A DNA stretch of 64,000 nucleotides, from contig OZ374565.1 in the NCBI GenBank assembly GCA_977862235.1, positions 1,364,001 through 1,428,000 of the forward strand. Direction: 5' to 3'. This DNA comes from Dudresnaya verticillata (lineage: Eukaryota). Each line of letters begins with the position of its first letter. Position 1 is the first letter of the stretch. A model generated the notes under the pieces. The model saw only the letters and a program-made list of their open reading frames with translations, was not told the DNA's origin and made no database searches. A program made the translations under genes and the position numbers. Positions 9,313 through 63,362 of the stretch are shown here, piece after piece.

Positions 9313-9330
9313 TTCTAGGTCGGGAGACCA
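9313..9330 (-). promoter_or_regulatory. Primer-binding site, complementary to a tRNA-Tyr-type 3' end
   Basis: Minus strand TGGTCTCCCGACCTAGAA, 2 nt from the LTR. Confidence 0.85.
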
Positions 9331-9332
9331 GA

Positions 9333-21253: not shown

Positions 21254-21479
21254 CGGCCTTCCCTCAAGCGTGAGCGCCCCGCTCACGGCCGTTGAGGTTT
21301 CCCGGGGCCACGATGGCAACCCCGAGTGGCCGTTGACAGTGATTGGCACGCGCGCCCGTCGACGGTGTATGCGCGTGCCCGCCCGTCTGCGCCGCTGCGC
21401 ATATAAGGATCACTGCGGAGTCGGCGCTGGGGAGGTTGCGGGCATCGCTCTCCACGACCCCCCTTCGCCCACACGCTTC

Positions 21480-24400
21480 AGCACACCAGTGACCGCTGCC
21501 ATGTGTGTGTATTGTGCTACGCCTTCTCCGCCCCCCTTCGCTCGACGCGAGTGCCCACGTCTGCAGTGCCGTGGTCAAGGACCTTATCCACCACGAACCG
21601 CGGGCCGTCGACGGCTTTGGACGCGAGTTCCTCAGTGGTGGGTAAGTATGCGCTGCGCTGCGCAGTATCCTCCCGCAGCGGCGGGGGACAGTAGACGGCG
21701 CGGTCCGCTGCGATGCGTTCGACCAAGCCGCCTCTGTCGATAAACAGCGTGCGCTTGTCGTTAAGCAGCACGCGGTAGGGCCCTATCGCTGGGCTCTGGA
21801 GCTTCTTGGGTTTCTTAACCCCTCGCTCGCGTCGATGAAGACGTAGTCTCCCGCTCGAATGCGGGAGTTGACTTTTCACGCTTGTCGAAGTCTTTCTTGT
21901 AACGCCGCTGCGTTTTATCGAGAGCGCTCGATTCGCTTGCGAAGGCGGCGTCGAGCCGCTTGAGGAAGTCCGCGCGCACGTCCTCACTAGGTTTCGGTCT
22001 GGCCGCTGCCTTATGAAACTTAGTGAACTCCGGCGGCGGCCGGGACAGCACGAGGCTGAAGGGTGTCGTCCGCGTCGTGCGATGGACATGGCAGTTGTAG
22101 GAATACGTCAACGCCGCTGCGTATCGATCCCAGTCGTCCTGGTGATCGTTGATGTAATTCCTCAACGTGGCCATGACGGTCCGGTTGTAGCGCTCAACCT
22201 GACCGTTCGCCTGCGGGTGGTAAGCGAACGTGAACACGTTGTTCAGTCCGAGGTAGCGGCACACTGCCTGAAAGAACTTAGAGGTGAATTGCTTCCCGTT
22301 GTCGGACAACAGAGACCTCGGTGGTCCATAGTGGAAGATCCAAGTCTCACAGAACTCCACTGCGACGTGGTACGCTGTGATGGTGCGCAGTGGCACTACT
22401 TGAGTCAGCTTCGTGAATCGATCCGTCATGAAGAGCAGGAATCGCTTTCCTGACTTCGTCTTGGGCAGCGGCCCTAGGATATCGATTGCGAGCGACTCGA
22501 GCGGCCTCGTGGCCGGGAACAACTTCAACCGATGAAGGGACCTCCGCAAGCGTATGCGGTTCCGGGCACAGTGCCGACAGTTCCGAACTGTCATGGCTAT
22601 GTCCGCTGACATGTGCGGCCAGTAGTAGCTCTCGCGGAGCGTGTAGAACATCCTGTTCTGGCCAGGGTGGCCAGCCAGGAGGGAGTGGTGCGCGAGCGTG
22701 AGAAGCCGCGGCTGTAGCGCTTCGGGCACCACTATTTGCTCCAACGAGGAGATGACGGGGTGACGCCGGCACAAGAGCCCGTCCTAGTCCTCGAAGAAGT
22801 GGCTATCCCGTCGACGGGACTGCCGTGCCAACACTGTTTGGCAAAAATAATCGCGCCGCTGCGCATCCACCAATTCCTCGACGGTTATTGGTGAAGGGAG
22901 CTTCACCGGTTCGACCCGGGTGAGGTCCGTCGGCTCTTGTCTGGCGTCGATGCGGCCAAGGTCGAAGAGGTCGACGTCGTCGCAGTCGTCCCAGGCTTCG
23001 TCGTCGGCAAGCCCCGGTGGCTCGTCGCTGTCCGAGGGCTCCTTGGCTTCGCTGCCAGTGCTGCCCACTGCAGCCGGTCGATCCGGCGCCTTCCGCGTCG
23101 ACGCGTTGGCTTGGGAACGGTCAGCAAGACCGACAGTGCCTTGGGTTCGGTACTCGAGGCACCCTCCTTCTGGCGGTCGACCGCCGGGGGGTTATAGGTA
23201 GGGACGTCGTCGTCAACCTCCTCTTACTGCCGTCCAGGCCTCACCAGGCGGGACAGCGCGTCCGGCACCTGGTGTACCCTACCCGGGCGGTACTCGATCT
23301 GGAAGTCGAATTCCGCGAGTCGTAACCGCCATCGGGTGAGGCGACCGGACGAATCGGTCAAAGACATGAGCCAGCGCAAGGCGTCATGGTCGGTTCGTAC
23401 CGTGAACCGGGTCCCTTCGATGTAGGGACGCAGGGTTGTGATCGACCACACCACTGCAAAGCACTCGCGCTCCGTGGCTGAGTAGTTTCACTCCGCTGAG
23501 CTTAGTGAGTAAGACCAGTACCCAACGGGGTGTAACTGGCCGTCCTCTTGCTCCTGGATCAGGGCGCATCCGAGCTGGTACGCCGATGCGTCCGTGTCGA
23601 GGACGTACTGCTTGCCCTCGCGAGGGGGCTGTAGGATAGGAGGCGATAAGAGTGTCGCTCGCAGTGTCTCGAATGCCTCCAGCGCCGCTGCGCTTGGATT
23701 ATCGAAATCCACATCCGCATCCTTGCGGGTCATATCCGTCAGCGGACGAGCGATCTTCGCGAAGTTCCTGACGAAGCGGCGGTAAACGTTACACGCCCCG
23801 AGGAACGAACTCACCTTCGTTAGGGAGGTCGGGAACTGCGCATGGCGGAACGCGTCGATGCTTGTCTTCGCCATGCGTAGTTTCCCCGGCTCGATCACGT
23901 GACCGAGGTAGTCCACGCGGGACTGGAAGAAGTGGCACTTCTTCAGCTTCAGGGACACGCCGCCCTTGCGAAGCAGAGTCAGCACGCGGTCTAGGTGACC
24001 GACGTGCTCCGCGATCGACCGCGAGAATATGATCACATCATCGAGATAGATCAAACAACACTGCCATCTAACTCCGCTGAGTATGATGTCCAGTAAACGC
24101 TGGAAAGTCGCAGGGGCGTTCTTCAGTCCGAAGGGCATCCGCAGGTAGCGGAACGTCCCTAGGAACGTCGTGAACGTGGTATTATCCCTGTCAGCCGCTG
24201 CGACAGGGATTTGCCAGTACCCTGCGTTACAATCCAGCGTGGAGAAAATGGCAGCGTCGCCAAGACTGTCGATACAGTCATCCATGCGTGGGAGTGGGTA
24301 TGCATCGCTCAGGGTTTTGGTGTTAAGACGTCGATAGTCCACACAAAACCTGACCGTCCCATCCTTCTTGGGCGCCAGAACGACTGGCGATGCCCACTCC

Positions 24401-25950
24401 GACGTGGCGGGTTCGATTACCCCTGCACGCAGCATGGTCTCGACCTCGTTCTGTACGAGCTTCCGCATAGCGGGGCCCTGTCGATAGGGCATTGAGCGAA
24501 TCATCCGCGTGCCGGGTTCCACGTCGATGTGGTGTTGCGTAGCGGCAGTCGTGCCTAGCCTCCCGTCCCACGTGGACTGATGCTTCCGAAGCATGGCGAG
24601 GACTTCTTCGCGGGTGACCTTGTCTTCGATAGACGAAAGGTCCACCTGCGACTCCCAGTCCTCGGCGGACTCTCTTTTCTCCGCCGCTGCGATTACTGCC
24701 CCTTGGAGCTTTGTGGGCTCGGGGCCCCTTGCCATCGACGGCGTGACTGGGGGGTCGTTGCTCCCCTTACCCCTGGGCCGCTGCCATTTATGGGGAAGGG
24801 TGGTGATATTCATCACCCTCCCGAACTCTTTCGCGACGTCGCGGTCCGGGGTTATTAGGGCGACTGGGTTGCGGACCGCATAGCCAACCACGGTACCCTT
24901 CGGTAGGGTCCGGGATTTGTCCGTCCAGTTGCCGAAGATAACCCCGAAGGGTCGCCCCGACTCGATGTCGTGCATGCCGTTGGTCAGTCTCACGCCGTGG
25001 CGGAACTGCAACGAGGGTTTGGGCTCCGTGTGGATTAACCCACTAGCCCCCGACGTCACCGAGACGAGCCTCTGCGAGTAGGCTGGGACAAATACCTGCC
25101 TAGCGAGGCGTATGGTGTGGGTATCGTGATCCCAGTCGATGAGCTCCCGCTGGTGCTTCTTCGACAAACCCTTCGATGGGTTCTTCGGCTGCGTTGCTGG
25201 ACCGGTTCCCTCGCTAGGGTTCCTGCGGCTGAGGATGGGCACCGAGCCTCCTTTCCTCAGCGTCAGCCTTCTCGACTCGACGTCGATTCCGCGCACGTGT
25301 GCGTTGATAAACTGCGTGCCTATCAGCACGTCGACCGCGAGCGTGTCGGCGACGATGAAAGGCACGCGGAACGTCATGTTCCCCAACCTCATCGAGAGGT
25401 GGACGACGCCGGACAGCCTCAGCGGAGTCTTGTCGGCGCCTGCCAGGCGTGGCCCGGAGTCGATCTCTGACGCGTTTTCCTCCCAGCCTGCGGGCAGGGC
25501 ACCTCGAGCGATGAGGTTGTACCTGGAGCCGGTGTCCACCGCGATGGTTTGGGTATCATAACCCGCGGGTCCGCACCGAGGAACCCGGACACTCGGTAAA
25601 TCTCGGAGGACAGGAGGCACACGTACCCATCGGGGGTAGTGGCCGGCTCTGCGTCGATGCATGGATTCCCGGTACCCTCGCGTCGAGCGTCGGGTACCGC
25701 CTGTCCCGCCGTTGGGGAACTGTGACCTTTTCGCCTGGCCTGCCGCTTGCGTCGACGCCGCGACGGCCAGGGTGGTTTGGTACGCGTCGCCCACGACGTC
25801 CCGTCGACCGGGACGTCGTTCGTGTCCTTCGAAGCGCCGCTGCGCTCGACGTGGGGGCTCGCTGCCCCCAACGCCGTCGAATGTGAAAGGGAAGGTGGGT
25901 CTGGTGTTGGAAAAGACGGTGCGCGCGACCGCACGAGCGGCGCCGCCTTT
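21480..25950 (-). pseudogene. pol: pol (PR-RT-RH-IN-degenerate chromodomain) with stops and frameshifts
   Basis: AVDTGSRYNLI, YLDD, LDTDAS, HPG..YYWP..CRHC, SDNGKQF, GPYRV, FVVDKVLDH. Split across ORFs 25419-25934, 23488-26070, 23224-23454, 21815-22774 and 21517-22089. Confidence 0.93.
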
Positions 25951-28367
25951 ATTCTTTTTCCGGATCGACCCGGTCAGAATTATCCTCGGAATCCGAACTT
26001 TCGTGCTCGATTCCGATTGGGTGTTTCGTAACCCCTGAGGCGCCTCGCGTCGATCGCGGAGGCGAGTCAAAAAGGAGAGGGGAATCGCTTCCCTGCCCGC
26101 TGGCTGTCTCTCCCTTGTGCCGCGCGTCGAGCGCTTGCGGAAGCCACTCGTCGGCGGTGAGGCCTGTGTGCTCCTGCACCGTCATAACTGCTCGAAGCAG
26201 TTCCCGGCGCGGGTCAGCCCTCGGAGGCGTCGATGCCTGAGGTTGACGGCCAGCGGGCTCGTCAAAGCCGACCCGCTTATCGCGCAGCAGGAACCGCGGT
26301 GCGTCTAATTGGCGGTACTCGCGGCGTGGGTCTCGACGATCCCCGCGGTACCCCTGCGGCTCTCCGCGGTACCTTGGTGCGCCCATGCGCTGCGGGGGAC
26401 CTCTCGCGTCGAAGCGTCGGTCCCCACCCCGCGGCGTGTCGTAGCGCCGTGCGGGGTTCCTTTTCCTTGCGCCCGCTGGCGCGCGCTCGTCGATGAGCTG
26501 TTGGAGCATATTGCGCGAATGCGGCTGCGTTTCCATTCGATGGTTGCAGTTCGCATAAGCGCAGTACGTCTGCTGTTCCGTCGAGAGGTACGGGCATGAA
26601 TACATGATGTGCCCGACCTCACGGCAGAACCAGCAGATGTACCATCCCTGTCGATCAGGGATGACTGCGCGTTCCATCGCCTCCTGCGTTGGAGTAAGCG
26701 GTGGTATGCGCTTGGGTAGGACCGCGTCGATGCGTCCTGTAATGTCGAGGGTCGCGACGGCCTCGGCCGATCCGGCTGTCGATAGCGCGGGCGCGACCAT
26801 CACGGGTTCGAACCCGTCGGCGTCAGGGTCCATCAGTATTGTGCTGTCGATAGCAACGTCCCCGCTGGGATAGCTTGGTGGGCCCTCGATGAGCAGTGTA
26901 CGGCCGCTTGCCGAGCTGCCACCTGATCTGCCGCACCCCGAGGTGTTCGTAGGCTGCGCTGCCTTTGCCGAACGGGCGCGGTAGGTTGTGCCCTCGCTAT
27001 GGGCAATCCGACGAACGGTACTAAAATTGGTCTGTTCGACCATAGGCAGCTGCGTGACCTTCTCCGCCACTGCGGGTCTTGTCGTGGGCAGCAGGCCCCG
27101 AAGGAACTGATGCGTCAAGTTCTCATCGGAGTAAACGCCGGCGCAGGCGTCCGCATACCCTTCGAGGCGAGTACCAAACTCAAGCTCGGACTCGGCGTCC
27201 CTCTGCTTGGCGGTGGTCAGCCGTTCATGGGCGTCTGCGATGATGTCGTCCGTGACGAACCTCTCGACGAGGGTATTGAACACCGAGGCCCAGCAGGGGG
27301 GGTGCCGCGCTGCGTTGTGCGCACCCCAGAGAACAGGTGACTCGAGTACACCTGCGACGCGGTTCCATCGAGGAACCAGGACACCACACGCGCCGCTGCG
27401 CCCTCGGATAGTCCAACGCCATTGAATGCTTGGCGTAGCTGTCGAAGCACACCAAGCAGGCGAATCGGCTCCTTGCCGTCGAACCTGTCGAGCCGCGGCA
27501 TCAGGGCCTTCATGCGGCTGACAATCTTCGCAGTGTTGCCGCTGCACACCTGCTGTTGATTGTCCCGCTGATCTAAGTCATCGAGACGGTACGAGCGGTA
27601 GTCGATCGCCTTAGCGAACTCTGGCACCAACGTGGTTAAAGGCTCGATGCCTGCCATGAGTGGGCCCCAATGCCAATAGGCAGAGACGGGGCCCTCGTGC
27701 TGTTGGGGGGTCGGTCCCCCCTTTGTGTTTTGCCCGTCGAGGGCTTGTTGGAGCAACCTGGGGTCGACCCCGTAGAACTCATTGGGCTCCCCACTCGGAT
27801 GGTGCGACCCCGCCGCACTCCTCGGTGGAGATGGCGGTGGTGAAGGAAAGCGATGCCGAGCTCGTCGCTCGGCAAGTATGGCAGCGGCCAATTCTTGAAC
27901 TCCACCCGCTGGTTACTGCGGTCGCGGAGGAGAGCGCTGCGCTGACGACGGGCCCGCTGGCGTTGCCGCGTCGGAGCGCGCTCTATCAACTCAACGCGGC
28001 GGCGTAGCTCATCGAGGAGCCCCTGTGAACGGGTTATTCCGTCCTCGATGGACGCCAATGGACCGCGTCGAAGCGTGTCCAGGTCTTGCTGGCCGTCGGC
28101 CTTCGCCGAAGCTATCGAAGCTGTAAGGTGGTCGTACACCTCGGCTAGCGAGTCCATGGTCTCCTCATACAGCAGCTGGAGGTCGGCCACCGAGACCAGA
28201 CTCCCGGAGAGGGCCTTTTGCAGCGCGGCCCTCCGCTCGAGCCTCACATCGTGTAGAGGAGTACCTGAGACGCCGATGGTACTCAGTATTGAGGTGCGTC
28301 GCGTCGCGTCCTCAACTTTTCCGGCAGCGGCCGATGCGGCAGCGGCCGGGTCAGGAGGACTCGACAT
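25949..28367 (-). pseudogene. gag: gag, frameshifted
   Basis: ATG at 28367 just after the PBS; coiled-coil N-terminus; IDYRSYRL, FDGKEPI, AKQRDAESELEFGTRL; knuckle CWFCREVGHIMYSCP. Confidence 0.85.
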
Positions 28368-28415
28368 CCTTTACTTCGATCGCGTCGATGCGAGAAGTAC
28401 TTGGGTCTCGACGAC

Positions 28416-28433
28416 TTCTAGGTCGGGAGACCA
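28416..28433 (-). promoter_or_regulatory. Primer-binding site (tRNA-Tyr type)
   Basis: TGGTCTCCCGACCTAGAA, 1 nt from the 5' LTR. Confidence 0.9.
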
Positions 28434-28434
28434 G

Positions 28435-29208
28435 TGTTGTATAGATGTCGGGTAGATCCGACGTCTGATACTTGCTGGTCCGAAGCCGCCACACAGACCC
28501 GTCGATGGGTAGCTGTTGGGGTTGGTAGAGCGGTGTCGGCCGCGTGCGCCCCGCAGGTGCGGATCGACGGCGTCGATGCCGGAGCGCGCACGGGGCGTAC
28601 CGTACGCGGGTAGGCAGCGGCCGGATCCCAGCGTCCCTGTCGAAGGGCGGCACGAAGCCGACGGAAAGGAAAAGGAAAGGGGAAAGCCTAGCGAGGCAAG
28701 GGGAAAAAGGGAAACCGCCCGCTGGCGTAAGGCAAAGGGATCGAACCCGAAAAGGCTGGGGGCAAGCTTCAGCGTGAGCTGTTGCTTGCCCGGTTTACTG
28801 AGCCGTCGATGGCCGACGGTCTTAAATACCCTACACTATGTACATTACGACTACTTCTACAGTAGGTGCGCCCCACAACACCAACGCGGGAGGTGTGCGA
28901 GCGCGCGCCCATAGACGTGTCGACACGTCCGGGTAACGGTTACCCGTGGGAGCACGCGGGGCGTAACGGGCAGCGGCCCTCTCAACGGCTCGATGCCGGA
29001 GAGCGTCACAGGGGCGCGCCGTCTGCGGCACGGCGCGCGGCCGCTGCCGGCAGCAATGCGGTCGACCGCTAATAATTCAACGAAAAAACTAAGGGCACGC
29101 TGCCCAACCACGACTCGCCAGCGGGCGTCATCGTGTGCACCATTACAGTGCGGCGCTGGCAGCATACCTTACAGCCGCTGCTGATAGTGTGCTGACAGCT
29201 ATACTACA
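28435..29208 (-). repeat. 5' LTR of element C
   Basis: TGTTGTAT...ATACTACA, direct repeat of 20480-21253. Confidence 0.96.
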
Positions 29209-43799: not shown

Positions 43800-44163
43800 G
43801 CGGGCCGAAGGAGCTGTGAAGCGGAGCGCCGCGCGGATGAATACCTTCTTCCTGGGGTCTTCTGCCTGAAACTTCTTCCTGAGTCTTCTCCCTCAAGCTT
43901 GAAACTTGAAGGTCTTCTTCCTGAGGTCTTGTACCTGAATAGTTGAGCGCAACGCCTTGCAAGAAGAAAGCACTAACCCGTGCTGACCGCGTCACGAGTG
44001 AAGCGACGCGCTGCAGAGCGAAGAGCGAGAGACTGTCGAAAGTTGTGTAGCAACACGGGGCTCACCCGATATCGACGCAGTCGCGAGGGATCCTCCCGTC
44101 GTGGTCTGGTGAACGTGCCGTTGCCGTTGATGCCGAAGGAGAGCGTGCGCGCTGGGGGACAGT

Positions 44164-44998
44164 TGTGGCGCACGGGGGACCGAGCTTTTATTTCCTCGCC
44201 ATGGGCGTCAAGGGCTTCGTCGACCGACGGACGGTCACCTGGAACGGGTCATTCTCCATTGGCGCGAACACGCCATCGACGATTGGCCTACGGACGCGCG
44301 GGTGCCACCACCCCGCACCGCGCAGGCCGATACACTGTACGGTACAATGCTGTAGAGCGGATCTGGATGACACATCGGGATCAACGAAGTGTAAGCGGGT
44401 TGACTGGCAATTTGGCCCGGATCCCGATCGAATCCGGATCCCACATCCGGATCGGACATCGGGATCCGCTGTAAGGGCAACGCGCCTGTAATACGGTGCC
44501 GATCGCGACCCGAATCCAGATCGCCTACAGTGCCATACAGGCGCGCCTTGGTCAGACGCATGCGCGGACGTACAGTGGCTGCATTGTCCCGGGACCTGTC
44601 AGACGCACCTCCATACGACACGTGTCCCGGGTTCCCGCGCACTACGTCATGCAGCCGCCGTGCCGCGGCCCCATACCATTATTTAGGTACCTCGTCTAGG
44701 ACGTAGCGGTAAAGCCCCGGCAAGCCGGTTTCGAGTCTAGACTTCCCTTCCGCGACGACGCGCACCCTACCGCTTCCCGGAAGCATAAACGTCTACCTCT
44801 GCGTGCTTTCACGTTCGTAACTGCTGCTAACGTGTTTTCCTTTGGGTTTCTTTGTCCCTTTTCTTTTCCGCCTCGGGCGTTTACAGTCCGCCCTAGGCGT
44901 GTTCAACCTGCTCTACCAAGTTCGCCATCAGCGGCTACCCACCGTGCCCCCGAACGGCCCGGAGGTGTTCTCCGTCAGTAGACGACGTTTGCACGGCA
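44164..44998 (+). repeat. 5' LTR of element D
   Basis: TGTGGCG...CACGGCA; roughly 30 differences from the 3' LTR by eye. Confidence 0.95.
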
Positions 44999-45000
44999 AC

Positions 45001-45018
45001 TGGTCTCCCGGCCTAGAA
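45001..45018 (+). promoter_or_regulatory. Primer-binding site (tRNA-Tyr type)
   Basis: TGGTCTCCCGGCCTAGAA, one transition relative to the other three PBS copies. Confidence 0.88.
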
Positions 45019-45039
45019 GCTGCTACGTTGCTACGAACG

Positions 45040-47714
45040 TTAACGTCTGTGAGACGATCGCTCAACCGTCACCCTGATGTTCTGCCCATCATTCACGACG
45101 TTTGCCTACTTCTTCGAAACCATTATGGGCCCATCGCGACCGCCGTTATCGCGTGGATCCTCCCGATGCCCGTATTCGACGCCTGGAACCATGCCGCCGT
45201 CGGGACCGGCCCAACCCATGACGACACGATCTGGTCCTCACGTCAGTCCGGAGATCGCCTCAGCCTTTACGGCACCGCCGGACCATGGCGTGTCACACGC
45301 TCCGCTAAACAGGGTAGAACCTACTCCCCCGCCGAATCCAATCGTCGTTCGTACTTCAGTCCCGGAAGGATCCGCCCTCTGTACCTACCACACGTACATT
45401 GACTCCGCCGACACCGTCCAGGCGGAGAACCAACGCGTCGTAGACGGAACACAAGCCGGCCTTGCCGAGGAACAACAACAACCAACCCCGGCTGCACAGC
45501 CGCAACAACAACAACCGACCGGAACCGTCGAGGACGATGGCAGCCGTTTAGCGCCTTTGGACGTCATCGACGATTCCCCACCCGCGAGGGACTGTTGTCC
45601 CACGCCCCACGGCAGTACCGAATGTTCTCCGGCAGAGCCGTCTGGTCAACGTGGCAACGCAGAGTCGTCACCGGTGCCGCAAAGCCTGGCGAGACAAATT
45701 CCAACACGACCTTCGCCCGCAGCGTCTCCTGTGTCCGCTCGCGTGGGTAATCTTACGATTCCCGCGACCGCATCCGAGAAGTTTGCGTCATCTAGGACGA
45801 TGCGTTGTTAGCATCGTCCTAGATGACGCAAACTAAACGTTGTTAGCGCAATTCGCGGAGATGCTCGATAACAGTGGCGGGGGAATCTGCAGCCGTCTAC
45901 AGACGTTAGAGGAGGGTCGAGACGGAGCCCTACAGGGGTTGCGAACCGACCTCGACCGGTTGATGACGAACCCGGGTACCAACGCCAAACAACCCGCCAC
46001 AGTAACGATCAACTGGCAGTCCGAACTGAGTTCGCGGGAACGTTTCAATCGGCTGGCGACTCGTTTAGAACGATTGGAAACCGCCAAGTTGAGTCAAGGA
46101 CAACCACCCTCGTCTGAGGACGAAAGCGACGACGAAGAACGTCGCCGCCATAAAAGTCGCAAGTATCGCGACCAACGAAAGAAACGCCACGGTCGAAAGA
46201 AGAAACGTCGGCGACGTCACGGGGATTCCTCATATTCCTCCGACTCGTCGAGTGAGGGAGAATCGTCGGGTACTTCAACGGATGACGAAGAGTACCCGAC
46301 CCACGGCGGGGCTGTAAGGCCAAGCGGCAAACGGTTCAAGGGGTTGAAGGAACTATGTCCCTCCAACCCCCTGTTCGCTCAACGCTTGTCGTATCGTACT
46401 TACCGTCTAGCAGATTTCGGGCAAAACGTTCCGGACGCGAAACAGGGAAGATCAAGGACCACATCAAACGTCTGGCGTTGACGATGAAGGATACCGCCTT
46501 CACGGGCGACGACCCGGTCCTGGTCCTTGAGTTCCTTACGCGTTTCGGGGATGAGGCCGATACGCTAGAAATGAGCGAAGCCCAAGCGTTCATAGCGTTG
46601 CCATACTTCTTACGAAGTACGGCGTCAACACAGTTCCGATCCGTCAAGTCGACGTCAACACGCCATCGAGGCGGAGTCTCTTCGTACCCGGAGGCGATGC
46701 AATACCTCCTCCGTACGTACGCAACGCCTTCGGCGATTCGATCCGCCGTACTGGCGTTACGTTCGACGATGCAGAAACGGGTCGAAGATGAAACTGCCTA
46801 CGGCATGCTACTCGCTGGAGATTGCATCCGTTGCGGAAACGTATACCCGACTGGGAGAAGATGACCCTATTTATCGATGGACTCGACCGTCGATACGATC
46901 GCTGGTCGCCCGTTTTCGCGAAGAAACGCCAAGGAAAGAGCTGTCGTTCGAACGATTAGTACACTTCGCATAAGAGGAGGGCGACGCGCACCGCACACGA
47001 AACGTTCGGGCCGGACAGACTTCGGGTCGGCAGGGTATACTGGTACCCGCACAAGCCACTCGCAACGTACGACCCGCTGTCGCGCTCAACCGCCAACTGC
47101 CGAAGCGTCCGAAGCCGGCGGCGCGCGCTATGCTGGCGGAGTCGTCCGTCGAATTCCGAGACATTAGCCACCACGGCGACGATGTCCAAACTCACGCCGA
47201 TGGCGATTTGTACCTGGCCGACGAAAAACTTTCGACACCAACGTCGGCACTGCCGACGGACAGTTACGTCGAAGACGAAGGGCAAATGGATCCCGCTCTC
47301 GCCTTCGGGCGTCCGAACGTACCCGCGCCCCGCGTACCCTATTCGGAATATGCTCCGCACGTCCACCGGGCAAGGCCCGGGTGGCAGGATCGAGGTCCAC
47401 CTCGTCAAGACGTACGAGGACAACTCATTTGCCATCAGTGCTACGAACGGGGCCACATCGCGCCGGAATGCTTCTTACGAATGAGCGACTTCATGAAGGT
47501 CGTCGCCAACTACGAGGGCCTAACGGAGGTCGAGAGGAACGGAGTACTCGCTGATGCGTATAACCGTTGTAAGGAACAAGCCACGAAGGAAGCGGTCCGC
47601 TGCGCCGCGCGCTCATCATCGCCAAGGGCGGGGTTGGCACCGCGCCTAGCCGAACGCCATCCGACGATGCTAAACCGCTACATAGCGCAAACACCGCCGG
47701 AGGCGAAAAACTAG
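45040..47714 (+). pseudogene. gag: gag (with conserved N-terminal extension), frameshifted
   Basis: LSYRTYRL, FTGDDPVLVLEFL, MQKRVEDETAYG, CHQCYERGHIAPEC; ends G AAA AAC TAG. The start is approximate. Confidence 0.8.
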
Positions 47715-50700
47715 TCCGAGCACCGACTCCTGACACTGGGGTGTCATATCCAAACGATAGGCTTCCGCCTCGGGTGGTGACACGGAAGGAGGGCCCGAAG
47801 CCACTTAAAGAAGACGCCGAAGGGCGAATAGAACCGTCACAGACGTCATTGAAGCGCCCATGGCGTAGGTACCAGCCCCCAAAAGGGCGGGGACAGTTGT
47901 TCGTAATGGCCAAGAGAAATTATAAGGTGTACGCCGACTTGGGCGCCACCACCAACACCTTGGCCCGTAAAGGTACTGTCCTCGACACCGGGGCTTGTCC
48001 CAACTTCATCCGCATTAACGAGATCCCGCGAGAAGCGCGTGCGCAAATTGTCGCCAAACGTCTGCCCGTCATTTCCGACGCCAACAACAAGGCAATACAG
48101 ACGCGCGGAACCATCCATTTGGTCGTACGTCTTGGACAACGGGTCGTTAAATTGGAATTAATCGTTTGTAAACGGCTCGCTGTGCCGGTCATACTCGGTT
48201 GCGACTTTTGCGACCGCTTTTTCGAAGCAATATATCCGCGAAGATGCGAGGTCAAATTGGACGACGGGACTCGAGTCCCGATCACGCGTCCTCCGCTTCG
48301 CCGACCGACGTCGTACCCGCCGTTGCCACCGGAGCAAGAGTGCGGACAGGCCGGAGGAAGGACTTCACCCAAGATTCGTTCAACCCAACGTACAATCATC
48401 CCGCCTCAGAAGCAGAAGTGGGTCCCGGTAGCCACGGAACGTTCCGGAGTAATCACGATTCAGCCGTTCGGAACGATGTACGACCGGCAAGGCATGCTCG
48501 ATACAAACGGTATCGCCCAATTGGAGCCGCTCAAAGTGTTCCGCATCCTAGTCGCCAACGTTTCGCCTCGGGCGCAAGCGCTCGCAAAAGGGCAGGTCGT
48601 TGCTGTGGCGTTACCCCATCCAACAGCAGTGTTCCCCAGTCACATAATTCTGGCCGATGTATTGGGTATCGCCGAAGACCAATCACAGGGTGAGGAAGCC
48701 AAGCAAGACTTTCGTTTCAAAACGAACGATTGCGTCGCGGCGAAGCCGGATACTTTCGCTAAGTCTATCGAAGCGACGCTCGCCAAGCCTCCGTCAGTGC
48801 ACGACTTGAACTTGGTTATCTGTCCGCAGAGCATCACGGCCGGTTGAAGGAGATGCTGCGCCGCTACTCGTCGATGTGGGACGGTTCCCTAGGAGAAATA
48901 GCGACCACGGAGCACTATATCGACCTGCTCCCCGGCTCTCACCCGATCTACTTACCACCATATCGCGCTGGTCCGAAGCAACGGCAGCTTGCTCAAGCGG
49001 AGATCGATCGCATGCTACGTCAAGGGGTTATCGAACCCGCAAAAATCGCCGTGGGCGTCTCCAGTCGTCTTCGCCCCAAAGAAGGACGGCACTCTCCGCT
49101 TTTGCGTAGATTATCGTCGACTGAACGCAGTAACCGTACGGGATACGTATCCGTTACCACGTATTGACGAATGCATCGACAGTCTAGGGGATGCCAACGT
49201 CTTCACACCCTAGACTGTAATAGCGGATACTGGCAAGTGCCAATTGCTCCGCGGGATCGCGACAAGACGGCCTTCGCGTGCCACACCGGTCTCTTCCGCT
49301 ATCAGCGTATGCCTTTCGGGTTGACCAACGCCCCGGCCACGTTTCAACGGACTCTCGACATATTACTCGCCGGGTATAAGTGGCGTTCGTGCCTCGTCTA
49401 CTTGGACGACATTACTATATTTTCCAAGGACGTTGACACGCACTTCCGTCATGTCGACGAGATTCTTTCAACTCTCCACCGAGCAGGGATCACTTTGAAG
49501 CTGGCCAAGTGTGACTTCTTCACCCCGACTGTCAATTACCTGGGACATGTGATACGTCCAGGACGATTAGAAGTCGACCGAACGGTTACCGCCGCATTAC
49601 GCGAAGCCAAGCACCCGCGGGACCAGAAGGAGCTACGTAGCTTCCTCGGGTTGTGTAACGTCTATAGAAGATTTGTGTCGCGTTACGCGCATGTCGCTGC
49701 GCCCCTCAATAAGTTGCTCCGAAAGGAGCAGGAGTTCACACTACCGTCCTTTGACGAAGGGCAAGCGGCCGCGTTCGACACTCTCGTCGAGGCCGTAACC
49801 AGTCCGCCGGTATTGGCGCTACCACAGCCAGGCTTGCAATACTCCGTCGATTGTGACGCCAGAGACTATCAAGTCGGATGCGCTCTCTTCTAGACGCAAC
49901 CCAATGGGGAGCGGAAGCCACTCGGTTTCTGGTCGCGTTCACTTACCGCTCCAGAGCGTAATTATTCTGTCTCCGAGAAGGAGTGTCTGGCAGTAGTGTG
50001 GTCCGTTACAACATTGCGTCCGTATCTCCAGATGGAGTCGTTCACCGTACATACGGATCACTCGTCGCTGAGGTGGTTGATGGAAATCAGTGACCCCTCG
50101 GGACGTTTGATGAGATGGCGACTGCGCCTCTCGGATTTCGACTTTGTCGTTAAGTACAAGAAGGGGCACTTGAATACCCAGGCTGATGCCCTTTCGCGTC
50201 TACAGACGAATGGCGAGACGGTTGAACCGATCGACGACGATGTTCCGTGCTACTGTGGGGGACACGTCGAGGACGAGCATCAGACGTCAACCGACGGTGC
50301 GACCTGCGCCGAAGGCGAAGTCGACTTCGTAGAAAGGGAGTTCGAAGAGTTCGACCGGCTGCTCCTCGCCAACGCGCCTTCACCGGAGGAGGTGCTCCTA
50401 CGTCAGGTAACGCAAGAAGAACTAATCCATGCCCAGGCCAACGACGAGTACTGCACTGGAATTCGGAAGCGTCTCTATGACGGAGAGTCGATACCGTTCG
50501 CGATGGACGAGCAAGGGCGACTCATAAGGACCGTGGAGGCCCGGCCACAGGTCGTTGTGCCATTCTCGTTACGCGCACGCTTCCTGCACCTCAGACATTA
50601 CGCTAAGCTAGCGGCACACCCCGGAGGGAGGAAGCTGTACCAGACGCTCCGACGTGAATTCTATTGGCCGTCCATGACGGTAGATTGTTTTACAACTGTT

Positions 50701-52413
50701 CGCAACTGCGTTACCTGCGCGAAGAACCGCGTCCTGCTACGAAAGAACGTGAACGAGATGACGCTGTTCCTGGCTACCGAGCCGCTTGAGTTCGTTTGTA
50801 TCGATATACTCGGAGAACTCATACGTACGAAACGAGGGAACAGGTTCCTACTTGTAATCGTCGACCGCTTTTCGAAGCTGGTCAGGACAGTACCCTTGCG
50901 AACAGTTACGGCTCTGGAAATCGCAAAAGCGTTCTTCCGACATTGGCTTTTCGTGTATGGTCCGCCGAAGCGCCTACTATCAGATAATGGGCCGCAGTTT
51001 GTCGCCAAACTATTCCAGAACGTCTGCCGTCTACTGGGTGTCGAGAATCTTTTCACCACGACGTATCACCCCCAGTGCAATGGACAGATGGAACGGTTTA
51101 ACCGGACGATACTCGCATCATTGCGTCACTACGTGGCAGACCATCCTAGAGACTGGGATATGTTCACGGATGCTTTGAATTTTGGTTTCCACACGCAGAT
51201 CCACTCGTCCACACAGTTATCGCCGTTCGAGCTGGTACTCTCTCGACCACCACTCCCGTTGTCGCTCCAAGCGGAGCTGTCGCTGGAAAGCATCCCGACC
51301 GGTGGTCAATACTACGCGAAGTGGAGAGCATGGCTGACCGCATTGATGAGCACCGCGACGGCGACGTTGGCTCAAACGCAAGCTCGCTATAAGCGGAACT
51401 TCGATACCCGACTGCGGAAATGCGCCGAGAAGATTGTCGCTGGTGACTTCGTATTTGTACGCAAGGAGTACTTCGCCAGAGGCGGTTAGAGGGATCAAGC
51501 AGAACGCAAGCACAAGCTAGCACCAGTGGCGGACGGACCCTACAGAGTAATCAGCGTCGAAGACGGTACGATTGCGGTCGACAAGGGACATAACGAACGC
51601 GAACGCTTGTCGAGGGACTGCGTGGTTTGGGCGCCAACCCCTCCGGGTCATGTCCAGATTAGCACCCCAACAGCCGCGGACGTCCTGCCCGATGGGGCGC
51701 CACCGAGTCAAGGAGTCGTCAACGACGGGACGAACGTCGCTACCGCGTCACCCCCGAGCGGGGGTGATCAACAGATGCGTGGCGACCATTCAACACAGGC
51801 GTCCATTCGTGGCTTAGCCGAGTTGGCTCCGTTCGAAGCTAGGCCCGGTAGTGAGTCATCGCGTTCCGTTTCAGACGACGACCAACCACAGGGGGTCCAC
51901 GCCCGACTCGGCGTCGCTAGACATACTCCGGCCACGCCGCCGGCTGGCCCGACTAAGAGCGCCACCGACGTAACCAAGGCTACGCTAAGGAGCGAATGTC
52001 AAACTCCGACTATGTCGGCGGCGAAAACGCCAGAAGCAAGCGCATCTCCCCCCGAAGGCGTACGTTCGGCTATACGAGACGCTACCCGCCCATGGTGATC
52101 ATCGCGCCGAGTACGCTTCGCCGGACCGTTGGACGCCCACGGCGCAGGACCAAAGCAGCCGAAGGACCCGCCCAAGGCGAAACGCAAGCAACCAGTCACT
52201 GGCAGCGAGGGAGAGTACGTAATCGATCGGATCGAGAAGCACGCGTTCGCAGATGACGAAGAGATCCTCTACTTCGTGAAATGGTTCGGATACGCTGCCG
52301 CAGCGAACACGTGGGAACCGGTGTCGAACCTACCCCGTTCGCATATCGTGCGGTACCACCGCCAAAAGCGAACGGACCCTCCACCGAATATCGACGACGC
52401 TCGTTTAGGGTAA
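47715..52413 (+). pseudogene. pol: pol (PR-RT-RH-IN-chromodomain) with frameshifts and stops
   Basis: VLDTGACPNFI, RFCVDYRRLN, YLDD, VDCDA, HPGG..FYWP..CVTC, SDNGPQF, GPYRV; chromodomain EYVIDRIEKH..YFVKWFGY..NTWEPVSNL. Confidence 0.94.
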
Positions 52414-53707
52414 GACGCCCCAACCGATCACGAAAGGACTTGCGTCCTAGAACGCCAAGGGCGGAAGCACGCCCAGAGCGGATCCTCATACGTACGCCCT
52501 ACAACGGGACAGTCAGTCAAGACGGCCCGAATCGCTGGCGCCACATAACCTCCAGGCGCTGGCCCCGGGTGACAGCGCACGCGGAAGGGGGGAATTACGA
52601 AAACAACACGAAAAGCAAAAATAATATTAATAATTACTCGCCGTAGGCGTCTCGCAAACCGCCAAGTGTCGTTACGAACGGACGGAGGGAAGTCCCCCTA
52701 CCACTATTTGCGAGGACGGGACGTTGGCCCCCTCGAACGAATAACCGCGTGACTCATGTCGCCCGCCACCGTCGACGTCCCCGCGACCTCGCGCCGCCGT
52801 CCGCAAGGGCACACTACTAAGGTACAGAGAGGGGAGAAGGAAACGGAACTGCTACGCTAAGGGGAACGACGCGAGACCGCGAGGCCGGATGGGGCGGGGA
52901 CGTCGCAGACGGGAATAACAACTTACGTGCACGACGCGTCGAGTGGCAAACGACCCCCCTCACTGGGAGTGGCCCTCCCGCGCCGAGAGTGTAGCGGCCA
53001 CACCATAATAACGTCGAAGACGAGTACTTGAGTTCAAGCGTCAAAGACGAACCAACTCTGGGGATCGGCTCCGCTGGCAATACGCGGAGCGCGACCAACG
53101 GGGACGAAGGAGCTATAGTTGCTGCCCGAAGCGTCAAGGACGAGTCAGGGCAATCCTGTAATGACGTCGGACGACGCCAGCTACGCAATATACACTGGCG
53201 TGGGGCGGCAGAGTCGCTGCAGCGCCGACGGCGGTCACTCCCCATGAACGTCAATGACGACGCACACGGAAGCGATTACGCCGGAGTAAGGTGGCGGGAG
53301 TAAGATGGCGCGCGACGCATTCATTTGCGGTCGCCTGCACCGACAATCACGCCAAGAGCGGTTTACGACAATAATGCACGCGGGTCCCATGGCTACCAAT
53401 GAAGCGGCTACGGAGAACTACCACGCAAGATTACGGCAAGGCCGACACGAAGCCCCTTCCCGCTCGCCAAGACGTTAGGGACGACTAAGACGCACACGCC
53501 ACGCGGGTGCCATTTGGCGTTACGTCTCGGACGATCAAGCAGGCCCCCGACCGCAAAAACAAGTTCCGGCGGGGGGAGCGCAGCCACAGTGGGTCAGTAA
53601 GGCAAACAAGGAAGTAACGGAGATGTCTAATACGCACATGCCTTAGACGACATCGCCCCTACTACCTCGCTAACTTTAGGGCTACGATAACGTGGCCATA
53701 TCCGTCT

Positions 53708-55981
53708 CTAGACGCCGGTCTTTCCCCCGCCCGAGCCGCTTCGCACGGAAGACTCGGACTCAGCCACTCTCGCGACCGCCAAGCGAGTCGTCAAAGACGA
53801 GAGGTTAGGGGACACCCTCCGTCGCCTTCGGCGTACTAGGGGCCTCCGCATCCTCGCCCTCGGCGGACTCACGAAGTGCCGCCTCGTAGCCATCATCATC
53901 CGTCGGAGACGAAGGAGCGGGACCAAGTGAAGCGGCGGCGGGCCGCGAGGCATCACCGGGCACAGCAACCACTTGGGTCACAAGATCTTCCGGCGCCTTC
54001 TGCGAAACATCAGACTCTTTAGTCGCCTCGGGCGTGGGGACAACCGTCGTCCGCCAGCTTCGGCGACCGCGAAGTCTTTTCCGCCACCGGCGTCGAGCGC
54101 AATGCAATCGCCTTAGGCGTTAACAGGGCATCTTTTCCCTTCGCCTCAGGCGTCTTCGGAATGTTAACCGCCTTCGGCGCAGGTTGGGAAGTGATCGCCT
54201 TAGGCGCTCCGGGGACTTCCGCCGTCGATGACGTTGGGACAACTTTGCTCGCCACAGGCGCTTCGCCACTGGAAGGCATCGTCGTAGACGAAGTCCCCAC
54301 AGCGCTCCCGCCACTAGGCCCCGTAACCGGCAGAGCCATTGACCCCCGCACAGGGGTTGCCGTCGAGGTTGGAACCGTCGCCAAGACGCGAGCCCACCAA
54401 TCCGAGGGCGAGCCGCTCGCTTCGCTAGGCTCGACGCCTGCGGCCCGCAGGAGCGAAAGGACCACATCACGCTGCGCGGAGTTCGAAGTCGGCACAGCCG
54501 AAGATACTGCAACACCGTCCTGGACGCTTGGAACCGATGGCGACGCCACTGCCACGACCGCTGGTGTCTGCACCCGGGAAGCCATGACAGCGTCACCATC
54601 ATCGTCAGCGACGGCTGCGTTCCCATCGTTGGGAGCAACCGCCACTGGCGTATGAGACGGCCCAGCCGCAGTTGCCACATCCGACGCCAGAGGCGATTCT
54701 ACAGCAGAAGCTGATGGCTCAACCGCCATAGGCGTCGCGAAGCCGGCCCAGACGTGTGCACCCCGGCGCTGGTAGCGTGAAAGGCGTCCTCCTCGGCTGT
54801 CAACATGGCCAAGTCAGGAGGGAAATCTCCGACAAAGTCGCACGATGGCAGTAGCCCACGAGGGTGGCCCGTTCAGTCACAAACCGGTCAGTACGTCGAT
54901 GACGTTCAGCACTGCTTTCCGTCGTTCGACGTTTGGTCCAAGGATTGTACCAGGCCCAGTCGCCACAGGCGTGGTAGTTGCGGCATATCGCGAAACGCGG
55001 ACGACGCGCCTTCCGGCGGCTGTTTTCCAGAGGGACGACCACGGGGTTATCCCAGTCGATCTCGCTCGCCACTTGGCGTAAGTACCAGAACTCGCGGAGG
55101 TTCCGCTGACCGTCGAGCGTCTCGGTAAGGTCCAAATCGTTGAAAAATGCTACGATACGCGGTGGGAGGTAGTACATCCGAAAGGTATCGTACACCTCCC
55201 ACAACCACGCATAAGCGATGTTGGCCACCCACTCCGTCTGAAAGACGATCCACCACCGCGAATACGCGTTCACTACGAGCTCCGAGCCCACGTAAGTGAC
55301 GCACGGGGGTAACGCGGCAGCGAAGCTCTCGCACACTTCCATCTCACGCCACTGTGGCGGTAACTTGACGAAACATTTCGACACTTTTGTACGCTCTAAG
55401 AGGTCAATCTGTGTATCCTGATACGGCACTAGCACGCCCTTGCGGCACCGGGACTCGCACTCCCAGCGAATGCACCTCTCCCAGTAGAATATGCCTGCTC
55501 GGTGGGAATACCGAAACTCCGCTCGCAAGCGCACACCCATCACCAACACATCGTCTCTGAAGCGAGCGTCCAACGACGGATTGATGTGCGTCAACGGCAG
55601 TTCTGCCAGACGATAACCATAACCGGCCTCGCCGTGTGTTCGGAAAAACGCCGCATCCAACCCCAGCGACAACGGGACCAAGTCGGTCCCCGGGAAGCGG
55701 CCATATACGTCGATGACGAAGCGGGCGTACGCGTCTGCCCGCGACTGGCCCGGGTGCGTATGCAACCACTCTTTCGGGACCGCGCAACGCGTCCGCCACT
55801 CCGTCGAATAGACGACAGCCAAGGGGCGTTCCCCCGGCAACATATCGCCAATGGCGTAATGCGCAATCTGCGCTTCGTTTCCCAACGCGGCCGGGTCAAA
55901 CCACGGCGCCCTCGCAAAGAGGCGCGCGTGGTCACGCGGACTCTTTCCGACAAAGTCGTGCAGTGACGGGTATACCGGCAT
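53708..55981 (-). pseudogene. Antisense accessory gene of element D (393-aa globular ORF plus frameshifted Ala/Pro/Ser tail)
   Basis: ORFs 54800-55981 and 54019-54729 lie between pol and the PPT, inside the LTR pair. Homologous to 41424-43799. Confidence 0.75.
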
Positions 55982-56371
55982 CGATGAAGGGGGCGCAATC
56001 TGCGCCCCATCGTACTATGGCATAACGTCAACGACGGAAACTTACGAATACGTCACTGACGATCGGGAATTCGCCGTCCCACCGAACAACGTCGTCGACT
56101 AGGAGATACCGCACGCGCCTTGGACGAGGATCGCCGAACATCAACGACGAAGGCAAACGGCCGCTTGGCAACACTGTCACACACGCCTCGTGCGGAGAAT
56201 TGACGTCGGTCGCTAACACGCTGAAAGCGGAACGACCGCTTCGGGCGAGGATGACTGCTCGCACACACGGCAACGCCGAGCAAAAGCACACGCCACAAGC
56301 GGAGTCGCAGCTGATGGAGGTTGCGCGGTACGACTCAGTCGATGGATGTGTTCGCGTCTAAGCGGGGGTCG

Positions 56372-57205
56372 TGTGGCGCACGGGGGACCGAGCTTTTGTT
56401 TCCTCGCCATGGGCGTCAAGGGCTTCGTCGACCGACGGACGTTCACCTGGAACAGCTCTTTCGCCATTGGCGCGAACAAGTCATCGACGATTGGCCTACG
56501 GACGTGCGGGTGCCACAAACCCGCACCGCGCAGGCCGATACACTGTACGGCACAACGCTGTAGAGCGGATCTGGATGACACATCGGGATCAACGAAGTGT
56601 AAGCGGGTTGACTGGCAATTTGGCCCGGATCCCGATCGAATCCGGATCCCACATCCGGATCGGACATCGGGATCCGCTGTAAGGGCAACGCGCCTGTAAT
56701 ACGGTGCCGATCGCGACCCGAATCCAGATCGCCTACAGTGCCGTACAGGCGCGCCTCGGTCAGACGCATGCGTCGACGTACAGTGGCTGCATTGTCCCGG
56801 GACCTGTCAGACGCACCTCCATACGACACGTGTCCCGGGTTCCCGCGCACTACATTATGCAGCCGCCGCGCCGCGGCCCCATGCCATTATTTAGGTACCT
56901 CGTCTAGGACGTAGCGGTAAAGCCCCGGCAAGCCGGTTTGAGTCTAGACTTCCCTTCCGCGACGGCGCGGACCCTGCCGCTTCCCGGAAGCATAAACGTC
57001 TACCTCTGCGTGCTTCCACGTTCGTAACTGTTGCTAACGTGTTTTCCTTTGGGTTTCTTTGTCCCTTTTCTTTTCCGCCTCGGGCGTTTACAGTCCGCCC
57101 TAGGCGTGTTTAACCTGCTCTACCAAGTTCGCCATCAGCGGCTACCCACCGGGCCCCCGAACGGCCCGGAGGTGTTCTCCGTCAGTAGACGACGTTTTCA
57201 CGACA
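56372..57205 (+). repeat. 3' LTR of element D
   Basis: TGTGGCG...CACGACA, preceded by PPT AAGCGGGGGTCG (56360-56371). Confidence 0.95.
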
Positions 57206-57860: not shown

Positions 57861-58062
57861 AGGTGTCAGCGATTTCGTATCGGGTGCGCACTGTAATGCG
57901 AATGCCATCGTGGCGCGCGCGATCACGAAGTCGGCTCGGGATTCGTCCGGAGGTGTCAGCGATTTCGTATCACGTGCGTGCTGTAATGCGTATGCCGTCG
58001 TGGCGCGCGCACCGTATGCATCGCTGTAATACGTTTGCCATCGTGGCGTGCGCAATCACGGA
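57861..58062. repeat. ~90-bp tandem repeat (2 copies plus a partial third)
   Basis: AGGTGTCAGCGATTTCGTATC...CTGTAATGCG.ATGCC.TCGTGGCGCGCGC at 57861 and 57951; partial copy at ~58024. Confidence 0.85.
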
Positions 58063-63342: not shown

Positions 63343-63360
63343 TTCTAGGTCGGGAGACCA
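63343..63360 (-). promoter_or_regulatory. Primer-binding site (tRNA-Tyr type)
   Basis: TGGTCTCCCGACCTAGAA, identical to 9313-9330 and 28416-28433. Confidence 0.9.
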
Positions 63361-63362
63361 GA

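Follow-up and report, generated by a model that had tools for sequence, protein, structure and literature searches.

An antisense accessory gene and family-specific inverted-repeat tags in a chromodomain Gypsy element of Dudresnaya verticillata

What antisense accessory genes do for long terminal repeat (LTR) retroelements has been a standing question ever since Grande and RIRE2 (PMC7264820). A 64,000-nucleotide stretch of contig OZ374565.1 from D. verticillata (positions 1,364,001 to 1,428,000, hereafter the window) contains an LTR element, D, with a long open reading frame (ORF) on the opposite strand between pol and the 3′ LTR, and it raises the question of whether this ORF is an inherited gene of the element and what its protein acts on. 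A sequence-only reading of the window had proposed an accessory factor under selection that might read motifs specific to individual element families.

Element D (44164-57205) is a chromodomain Ty3/Gypsy element, as first described. It has an LTR pair with 96.3% identity, a primer-binding site (PBS), a polypurine tract, a target-site duplication and the PR-RT-RH-INT order, with a C-terminal chromodomain (PF00385, E 2.5e-10) at the end of pol (Table 1). Its closest named pol relatives are red algal. The gag region was assigned from its position, and no gag Pfam match was found on its pieces. The pol stop codon lies at 52411-52413, so that 52414-56371, from the pol stop to the 3′ LTR, is exactly the extra internal DNA of approximately 4 kb that the sequence-only reading had reported. 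No long tandem array was found in this region.

Table 1. Coordinates of element D and of related features in the window
Feature	Position	Strand	Remarks
Relative of D, truncated within the internal region after 5′ LTR and PBS	8560..10239	-	18 D-type tags
Complete element C (comparison)	20480..29208	-	32 AGCG-loop and 20 ATCGAC-loop hairpins; no accessory homolog
Intact divergent homolog, 791 aa	41424..43799	-	Outside the LTRs of D
Left target-site duplication	44159..44163		4/5 bases match 57206-57210
Dispersed CG-X-C-NNN-G-X′-CG tags (80), X complementary to X′	44164..57205		Median spacing 84 bp
5′ LTR of D	44164..44998	+	TG...CA ends; 5 CGYC-NNN-GRCG matches inside
Primer-binding site of D	45001..45018	+	Common to three other window elements (1 degenerate base)
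Gag region of D	45837..47714	+	Several frames, decayed
Pol of D: PR, RT, RNase H, integrase, linker, chromodomain	47573..52413	+	Interrupted by stops and frame changes
Chromodomain ending pol	52216..52359	+	PF00385
Spacer from pol to accessory gene	52414..53800		AT-rich stretch around 52600-52640; 7.2 tag matches per kb (10 in all)
Probable distal piece of low-complexity tail	53808..54119	-	From composition only; profile E 1.6
Low-complexity tail of accessory gene	54019..54813	-	Different frame from domain
Conserved ~370-aa accessory-gene domain	54866..55981	-	ORF continues as far as a stop at 54800; fold predicted to be compact and largely helical
Polypurine tract of D	56360..56368	+
3′ LTR of D	56372..57205	+

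The antisense ORF of D occupies 54800-55981 on the minus strand and encodes 393 aa from an ATG at 55981, 390 bp from the 3′ LTR as had been noted. An ORF of 404 codons was reached in 3 of 500 simulated sequences, making length alone modest evidence, and it is homology rather than length that is decisive for the reality of the ORF. Long plus-strand ORFs over the accessory gene were dismissed as shadows, the family profile matching the minus frame only. The enrichment in Trp, Tyr and Arg claimed for a domain of ~390 aa stands (4.3, 5.1 and 11.1%, vs 1.7, 3.0 and 9.0% in the RNase H-integrase ORF of D), with the conserved domain itself being nearer 370 aa. A low-complexity tail is likewise present on the opposite strand but is not continuous with the domain: an accessory-family motif goes on in another frame near 54870 and the tail sits in a third frame. 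Because of these displacements, the accessory-gene copy in D is broken after the ~370-aa domain, as the pol of D is also broken. The tail matched a three-helix tail motif of the family weakly, ranking top of 1598 peptides yet with E 0.45. Since the maximum 19-residue hydropathy of the antisense protein is only 1.28, it has no predicted transmembrane helix, in agreement with the initial description; an env-like gene was rejected on this value and on the antisense orientation.

The accessory family is large, comprising 375 clusters at E ≤ 0.001 and 144 at 1e-10. The ORF of D retains 28 of the 31 strongly conserved family columns, which include five Arg, three Trp and four Tyr, and the plan of a domain followed by a low-complexity tail is the same among the 45 best homologs listed. 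Conserved charged residues that may belong to a binding surface or to an enzyme pocket are D109, E118, E174, E215 and D341, together with R114, R157, R178 and R268. The three-helix tail motif was found in 31 of 152 family proteins. Across the family, the domain shows no overall basic character, with a median net charge of 0 and a median pI of 7.1 (n = 58). Divergence of domain and tail within 90% clusters proceeded at similar rates in five of six pairs, a comparison that is uninformative. Word-based homolog searches returned only two proteins, then one. Of 54 homologs, 53 had no Pfam family, and neither did P0001, P0003, P0004 or P0022; among PDB sequences no match fell below E 0.29, PHROGs gave 0/8 matches and the ESM Atlas no usable match. 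The metagenome contigs, viral contigs and prokaryote genomes searched contained no relatives of the gene. Structure prediction, which had been suggested as a check, yielded a single, confident AlphaFold model of the domain (pLDDT 92.8, pTM 0.91). Foldseek gave no match to it at E ≤ 0.001, and a VIA comparison with solved structures reached a Z of 2.6 at best (rmsd 4.5, 138 aligned); for a predicted model, such a lack of structural matches does not prove a new fold. The model of the three-helix tail motif (pLDDT 86.8) had a best Z of 4.0 and matched SAP with Z 3.1 and rmsd 6.4 amid many unrelated helical matches.

Whether the gene belongs to the element or is a one-off insertion was addressed by its linkage in other copies. 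Five of the six members of homolog cluster P0022 lie on contigs of exactly equal size to those of five of the seven members of P0262, a cluster of integrase plus chromodomain proteins (the unrelated member P0006 was excluded from this count). There was no other match among 3608 pairs, and the chance is ~5e-5 per pair. Linkage was seen for one of the 12 homolog clusters looked up, against 10 integrase clusters listed in full or part. These equal contig sizes show indirectly that a sister family pairs the accessory gene with a chromodomain integrase. On a 4638-bp contig, accessory homolog and integrase are both C-terminal parts, as a convergent layout predicts, and the two genes of the sister family probably lie tail to tail. 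The accessory gene is full length in three of the six P0022 members. Identity between D and the sister family is 35% for the accessory gene and 53% for the integrase, indicating that the accessory gene evolves faster. Because the sister family pairs it with integrase, the accessory gene is inherited cargo; neither of the outcomes that would have refuted the sequence-only reading, absence from sister copies as a one-off insertion or neutral evolution, was what we found. Together with the size of the family and the columns conserved in D, this bears out the proposal of an inherited gene under selection, and we consider it very probable that the ORF is a broken copy of a conserved antisense accessory gene of chromodomain Gypsy elements, likely inherited along with the element in red algae.

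The ORF at 41424, originally cited as a divergent homolog indicating selection, is homologous to the ORF of D (25% identity over 178 aa, E 3e-10; E 2.8e-28 with a family profile built without it), but it is not a sister copy. It sits in DNA that D inserted into, outside the LTRs of D, and is a long-branch outlier in a quick tree of 60 rows; it is a distant paralog. Its DNA resembles element C unconvincingly (best tblastx E 0.005 over 43 aa).

An antisense gene between pol and the 3′ LTR is also found in the Retand/Tat elements maize Grande (gene23), rice RIRE2 and Silene Retand, where the region from pol to the 3′ LTR spans 3-6.5 kb and the antisense products are proposed DNA-binding regulators (PMC11963269, PMC7264820). 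D belongs to this positional class, its ORF being on the opposite strand inside the LTR pair, and the same holds indirectly for the sister family. Retand elements are, however, non-chromoviruses of flowering plants, whereas D is a chromodomain element with its relatives in red algae, and the Retand antisense domain TRP28 (PF04195) was not found by Pfam in the protein of D or in 53 of 54 homologs; membership of the Retand/TRP28 group was therefore rejected. Fungal antisense genes behind pol are described as six-cysteine, Zn2Cys6-like genes. They share the antisense position with the gene of D, but a cysteine cluster is not conserved in the family of D, which has one conserved Cys column, at 44%. 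An antisense gene behind pol in a non-plant Gypsy element, brtn of Botrytis Boty/BcGypsy1, is compared here as described in the available text of its reports (PMC7264820; 10.1101/2021.04.13.439636).

The proposed family-specific motifs proved real and stronger than claimed. In contiguous k-mer scans, CGCCA had appeared as a weak motif of D (81 vs 45.7); it was dropped when gapped scans showed a gapped tag. At CG-X-C-N3-G-Y-CG sites in D, X pairs with Y at 75 of 87 (permutation mean 27.7; 0/20,000), and all four Watson-Crick pairs are used at the free position (31, 28, 11 and 5); in the window outside D, only 6 of 32 sites are complementary. D contains 80 tags and the fragment of its relative at 8560-10239 contains 18, against 8 across the rest of the window. 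They are imposed on coding sequence, with 17 in gag-pol vs 2.1 under synonymous shuffles and 21 in the accessory gene vs 2.8 (0/1000 in both cases), and their highest density, 16 per kb, is in the tail region (53801-54865). The tags of D are compensating inverted repeats and likely mini-hairpins. No account of compensating mini inverted repeats differing family by family was found in the literature searched, mostly outside subscription journals.

Other elements of the window carry tags of their own. Element C, complete from LTR to LTR, has AGCG-loop hairpins at 32 of 153 sites, and this fixed loop on variable stems is common to C and the DNA of the 41424 homolog. In the latter, AGCG-loop hairpins occupy 11 of 78 sites, compared with 2 of 406 across regions other than C (p 6e-8), with 9 in 40550-44163, of which 7 are inside the ORF vs 0.28 expected; when loops were scanned without bias, 1 of 15 simulations equalled the AGCG signal of the region. 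The ATCGAC loop of C was found at 0/3 in the homolog's DNA. Element E and the visible part of element A, whose 5′ end is beyond the window, have tags and no accessory homolog. The caveat that A and C show motifs but no such ORF is thus confirmed, and for C partly softened because the DNA of the divergent homolog carries its AGCG-loop tag.

We put a probability of about 0.4 on the reading that the accessory protein binds its family's own dispersed inverted-repeat tags. Antisense transcription would start either in the LTR or in the 390 bp that separate the gene from the 3′ LTR. The ~370-aa domain would recognize the hairpin or inverted-repeat form, probably as DNA given that tags are found in either orientation, and a host or element partner may be recruited by the disordered tail and the small three-helix motif in it. 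By binding cognate tags, the protein could shield copies of its own family or switch them on, whether in cis or in trans; such an anti-silencing or activating role is suggested by analogy with VANC only. The pairing of protein with tag draws on just two cases, D and the 41424 homolog. The latter, a very divergent protein amid a different tag type, speaks for the reading; the tags of C, A and E, which have no homolog, the lack of basic character in the family domain and the minority of D tags predicted to pair in local folding speak against it. A broader version, in which red-algal Gypsy families have hairpin self-codes and a new-fold reader that serves related copies in trans, as a structure-based system of self-recognition and anti-silencing, is less likely than not; the codes may there be fixed stems with free loops or fixed loops with free stems, running through LTRs and coding sequence. 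Here a large, well-folding family with no named relative is combined with a precise candidate target, covarying tags that differ by family, so that the tags of one family can serve as specificity controls when binding to those of another is measured. Regardless of which protein reads them, the tags are of interest in themselves: such compensating mini inverted repeats, present by the dozen in each family and in both orientations, point to a mechanism by which competing retroelements tell self from other.

A serious possibility, if short of an even chance, is that the tags are RNA signals for packaging, dimerization or compaction, read by Gag or acting as kissing loops, and that the antisense protein works separately and may serve silencing suppression, nuclear entry or integration. 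The tags are more widespread than the gene, being present in C, A and E, a distribution that favors a reader common to all elements, for example Gag, and the fragment at 8560-10239 has the tag of D together with its LTR and 5′ region. Covariation in D needs a spacer of at least 3 (5/16 at spacer 2), as in a hairpin; in the loops of D, A outnumbers T by 92 to 46 on the sense strand (p 0.01), and the ATCGAC loop of C, which contains a palindrome, is strand-biased (16 vs 4). Dispersed packaging signals are described for RNA viruses: in ssRNA viruses and HBV, numerous small stem-loops that have a recognition feature in common are spread over the genome (PMC6281560). Those signals, however, are strand-specific RNA read by capsid protein, whereas AGCG, a fixed loop, is found in either orientation (26 vs 21 in C; 4 vs 5 near the homolog) and G-U-type pairs show no sense-strand excess (1 vs 3 at the free position, 6 vs 8 at the closing pair). 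Local folding predicted only 21-25 of 75 D tags as paired at p > 0.5, no better on sense than on antisense RNA.

It is improbable that a dimeric protein binds the tags as double-stranded DNA, or that they are sequence hot spots, with template switching during reverse transcription making the arms complementary, covariation being a mutational by-product and the hairpin not recognized. Such an origin would fit stems of just 4 bp and the finding that retroelement regions in general contain more short perfect stems than simulated sequence does (85 and 89 vs ~40 in C, at loops 4 and 5), an excess that is slight or absent in non-LTR regions. Templated copying should not end stems as sharply as observed, with the next outer pair complementary in 5 of 59, below chance, nor confine the signal to one stem sequence and one spacer per family. 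Least probable is that the gene does nothing for the LTR element and merely travels with it as a passenger, brought by a nested non-autonomous DNA transposon or captured as cargo common to red-algal transposons, like the Plavaka gene PAG1. No pol, PBS or LTR motif was found within the window left of the 41424 homolog, and, according to the available text of 10.1101/2025.02.11.637652, red-algal accessory genes move between transposon classes; among the Plavaka genes PAG1-3 described there, no domain is detectable in PAG1, and PAG3 has been proposed as a binder of inverted-repeat arrays of its own. The PAGs come from EnSpm/Mutator DNA transposons, D is an LTR element, and PAG1 was compared by description only. 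Set against a passenger are the tag of D at synonymous sites of the gene, the five sister-family contigs with gene and integrase, the gene being full length in three of six members, and the 4 kb of D, which no terminal repeats bound, so that a nested TIR element was rejected as its origin.

For the reading in which the accessory protein binds its own tags, VANC of the Arabidopsis VANDAL (Mutator-like) elements may offer a parallel in how it works. As outlined in the available text of PMC5735166, VANC is element-encoded and fast-evolving, with conserved and variable regions, and its cognate elements carry family-specific short motifs at high density. Membership of the VANC family, which the comparison in the sequence-only reading had brought into view, is not borne out: the protein family of D has no Pfam match to DUF1985 or DUF287, and the motif that VANC reads is linear, 8-9 bp long and placed in tandem repeats in the non-coding DNA of a DNA transposon, whereas D has covarying inverted repeats dispersed through coding and non-coding sequence. 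Like the elements of VANC, D has a family-specific short motif at high density (80 vs 8 in the rest of the window).

The sequence-only reading placed an antisense gene between pol and the 3′ LTR of element D, a chromodomain Gypsy element, and this accessory gene is borne out, its protein belonging to a family that numbers 375 clusters at E ≤ 0.001, of which 31 reach 1e-30, in a search of 1.84 billion representatives. Identity among the 150 matches listed was 25–45%, and 53 of 54 homologs tested had no Pfam match, the remaining one having a weak low-complexity match. The family appears to be new, and the literature covered, with most subscription papers and Repbase outside its scope, gave no account of it or of the tags described below in red-algal LTR elements. 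The layout is of an already known kind: Grande, RIRE2, Retand, PvRetro13, and the fungal Boty each have an antisense ORF of unknown function in the stretch from pol to the 3′ LTR (PMC7264820), those of the non-chromoviral Retand bearing TRP28 (PMC11963269).

Family members consist of a single ORF in which a ~370-aa domain is followed by a low-complexity tail. Both parts are present in D, but not in one ORF: similarity in the first frame stops near 54870, a family motif goes on in a second, and the tail is encoded in yet another, which leaves the gene broken. In a 99-row alignment (the query, clusters P0004 and P0005, and 96 of the 150 listed matches, short fragments excluded), 31 columns were at least 85% identical, including the start Met, and D retains 28. 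Arg and aromatic residues are among the conserved positions, the protein diverges faster than integrase, and it contains no cysteine cluster and, in agreement with the sequence-only reading, no transmembrane helix. Of 152 proteins, 31 share a three-helix motif in the tail; its top match among 1598 window peptides was D's tail, yet with an E of only 0.45. The pol of D, which matches protease, RT, RNase H, integrase, and chromodomain, is likewise interrupted by stops and frame changes, and the copy is therefore dead. Its LTRs mismatch at 30 of 837 aligned columns, and four of five target-site duplication bases agree. Where the 120 relatives listed for its RNase H-integrase ORF carry an organism name, it is Chondrus crispus, in one case Agarophyton chilense, and in one a bacterial MAG label, so that the host is likely a red alga. 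The D spacer holds a second antisense ORF with no Pfam match, and AT-rich patches soon after the pol stops of D and element A are possible candidate terminators.

Coordinates of features in the window
Feature	Position	Strand	Remark
Element A	1-6850		
A AT-rich patch	5373-5438		
D-related truncated fragment	8560-10239	-	
Integrase-chromodomain fragment	10240-12800		
Methylase-like ORF	15893-17950		stop-split
Tandem duplication	19111-19326		106 bp
Imperfect palindrome	19907-20092		~150-180 bp
Element C	20480-29208		
Cytochrome P450 fragment	29893-30540		E 0.0028
DUF7869 ORF	33306-35456	-	716 aa; E 1.8e-38
Small ORF	40641-40910	+	89 aa
Accessory-gene homolog	41424-43799	-	791 aa
Element D	44164-57205		LTR-bounded Gypsy element
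D PBS	starts 45001		
D AT-rich patch	~52600-52640		
D second antisense ORF	52817-53275	-	152 codons
D accessory-gene ORF	start 55981	-	390 bp from 3′ LTR
Probable further LTR	57341-58857	-	degenerate repeats 57858-58079
Element E	58858-63872		
9-mer GCTCTACCA	6752, 7852, 9432, 20568, 28523, 44910, 57117, 57410, 58941, 63446		

The structure prediction that had been called for gave a mainly helical AlphaFold2 model of the domain (pLDDT 92.8, pTM 0.91), with no Foldseek match in PDB or BFVD. Against 48,161 chains the best VIA Z was 2.6 (rmsd 4.5, 138 aligned), well under the 7–8 that VIA states as typical for unmatched models, and the model suggests an unsolved fold. The tail-motif model was equally like many small helical bundles.

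In one sister family, indirect evidence strongly indicates that the gene is inherited with a chromodomain-integrase element. Homolog cluster P0022 (six members) and integrase-chromodomain cluster P0262 (seven members) have five exact contig sizes in common (4638, 6678, 14953, 23241, and 27813), with no further match among 3608 pairs (41 × 88 lengths) and a chance per pair of ~5e-5, estimated from the near-miss rate. Both proteins are truncated at the N-terminus on the 4638-bp contig and retain the C-terminus, as expected from a tail-to-tail layout cut at the contig ends. The other 11 homolog clusters looked up had no partner among 10 integrase clusters among the members listed (including 15 of 80 and 15 of 20). 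The 33 members of P0004 are each on a separate contig, a spread typical of repeats.

The divergent homolog noted at 41424 is real: it is intact, gives E 2.8e-28 against a family profile built independently of it, and forms the longest branch of a quick 60-row tree. It lies outside D's LTRs, within DNA into which D inserted, and to its left pol, PBS, and LTR motif are all absent. A small ORF without Pfam match, downstream of a TATA-like box, is convergent with it.

Contiguous k-mers gave strong motifs in A, C, and the integrase-chromodomain fragment and a weak one in D, where a repeat search brought out a gapped palindrome. The window has 88 CGYC-NNN-GRCG sites versus 8.5 by chance, nearly all of them within D or its truncated relative. 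In D, X and Y of CG-X-C-N3-G-Y-CG are complementary at 75 of 87 sites, with all four pairs used (permutation mean 27.7; 0 of 20,000 reach 75), versus 6 of 32 elsewhere in the window. The closing pair covaries as well (82 of 116 versus 52), and the stem stops there, the next outer pair being complementary in 5 of 59; there is no covariation with a spacer of 2, and only weak covariation with one of 4 or 5. Arm-to-arm pairing is the simplest reading, because independent half-site reading by a dimer would not yield this pattern. Tag density runs from 2.6 per kb in constrained coding sequence to 16 per kb in the accessory-gene tail, and tags in coding sequence are far above synonymous shuffles. Such covarying, family-specific tags appear to be new.

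Element C has the converse design, with fixed loops and free stems: 32 of 153 AGCG loops have a stem of at least 4, and 20 of 35 ATCGAC loops one of at least 3, and at synonymous pol sites C tags number 14 versus 0.48 and 12 versus 0.46. The AGCG-loop tag is found at 0 of 161 sites in D and at 11 of 78 in the DNA that carries the 41424 homolog and in the flank beyond D, against a background of 2 of 406 for non-C regions (p 6e-8, the loop having been chosen from the same data). Element A, with an intact 1463-aa pol frame, carries CCG-NNN-CGG (49 versus 4.1 expected), its spacer often TAA or TTA. Element E, with zero substitutions between its LTRs and no long ORF, is young and probably non-autonomous; its tag, AC-X-N5-X′-GT, covaries at 32 of 45 sites. 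The integrase-chromodomain fragment is enriched in GGCCA (47 versus 18.6), with no hairpin signature in scans. The region that E inserted into or beside, which has two AGCG-loop hairpins, is a probable LTR of another element.

We put at about 0.4 the probability that the accessory protein reads its cognate tags, by analogy with the element-encoded VANC proteins (PMC5735166). The protein would recognize its own family's tags, could act in trans, and would target their DNA form, since the fixed loop is used in both orientations and G-U pairs are not favored. VANC-like logic fits two very divergent family members each lying in DNA with a different tag, and a protein that evolves faster than integrase with Arg and aromatic conserved positions.

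Against this reader count the complete element C without an accessory gene, as the sequence-only reading had cautioned, and the tagged A and E without one (no homolog in A's 1.3-kb 3′ region). The domain is on average not basic, D loops are A-rich on the sense strand, and in-context folding is predicted for only ~1/3 of D tags. Reading of the tags by Gag or at the RNA level, with the accessory gene in a separate role, is an alternative almost as probable, to be set against the orientation and G-U evidence for DNA. That the covariation is of mutational origin seems unlikely beside its restriction to one stem sequence and one spacer in each family, and that the gene is passenger cargo is very improbable beside its probable linkage to integrase in the sister family.

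There are 10 copies of the 9-mer GCTCTACCA in the window versus a chance mean of 0.31. All eight delimited LTR copies contain it, ~80–100 bp short of their 3′ ends, and the other two occurrences fall in what are probably additional LTRs. It looks complementary to the tRNA D-arm and is possibly a second primer-binding box in U5. The DUF7869 ORF may encode a DNA transposase. An imperfect palindrome, a tandem duplication, and a cytochrome P450 fragment were also seen. The methylase-like ORF weakly matches N6/N4 DNA methylase (PF01555, E 1.3e-4), and its domain content resembles PAG2, one of the accessory genes described for red-algal Plavaka elements (10.1101/2025.02.11.637652).
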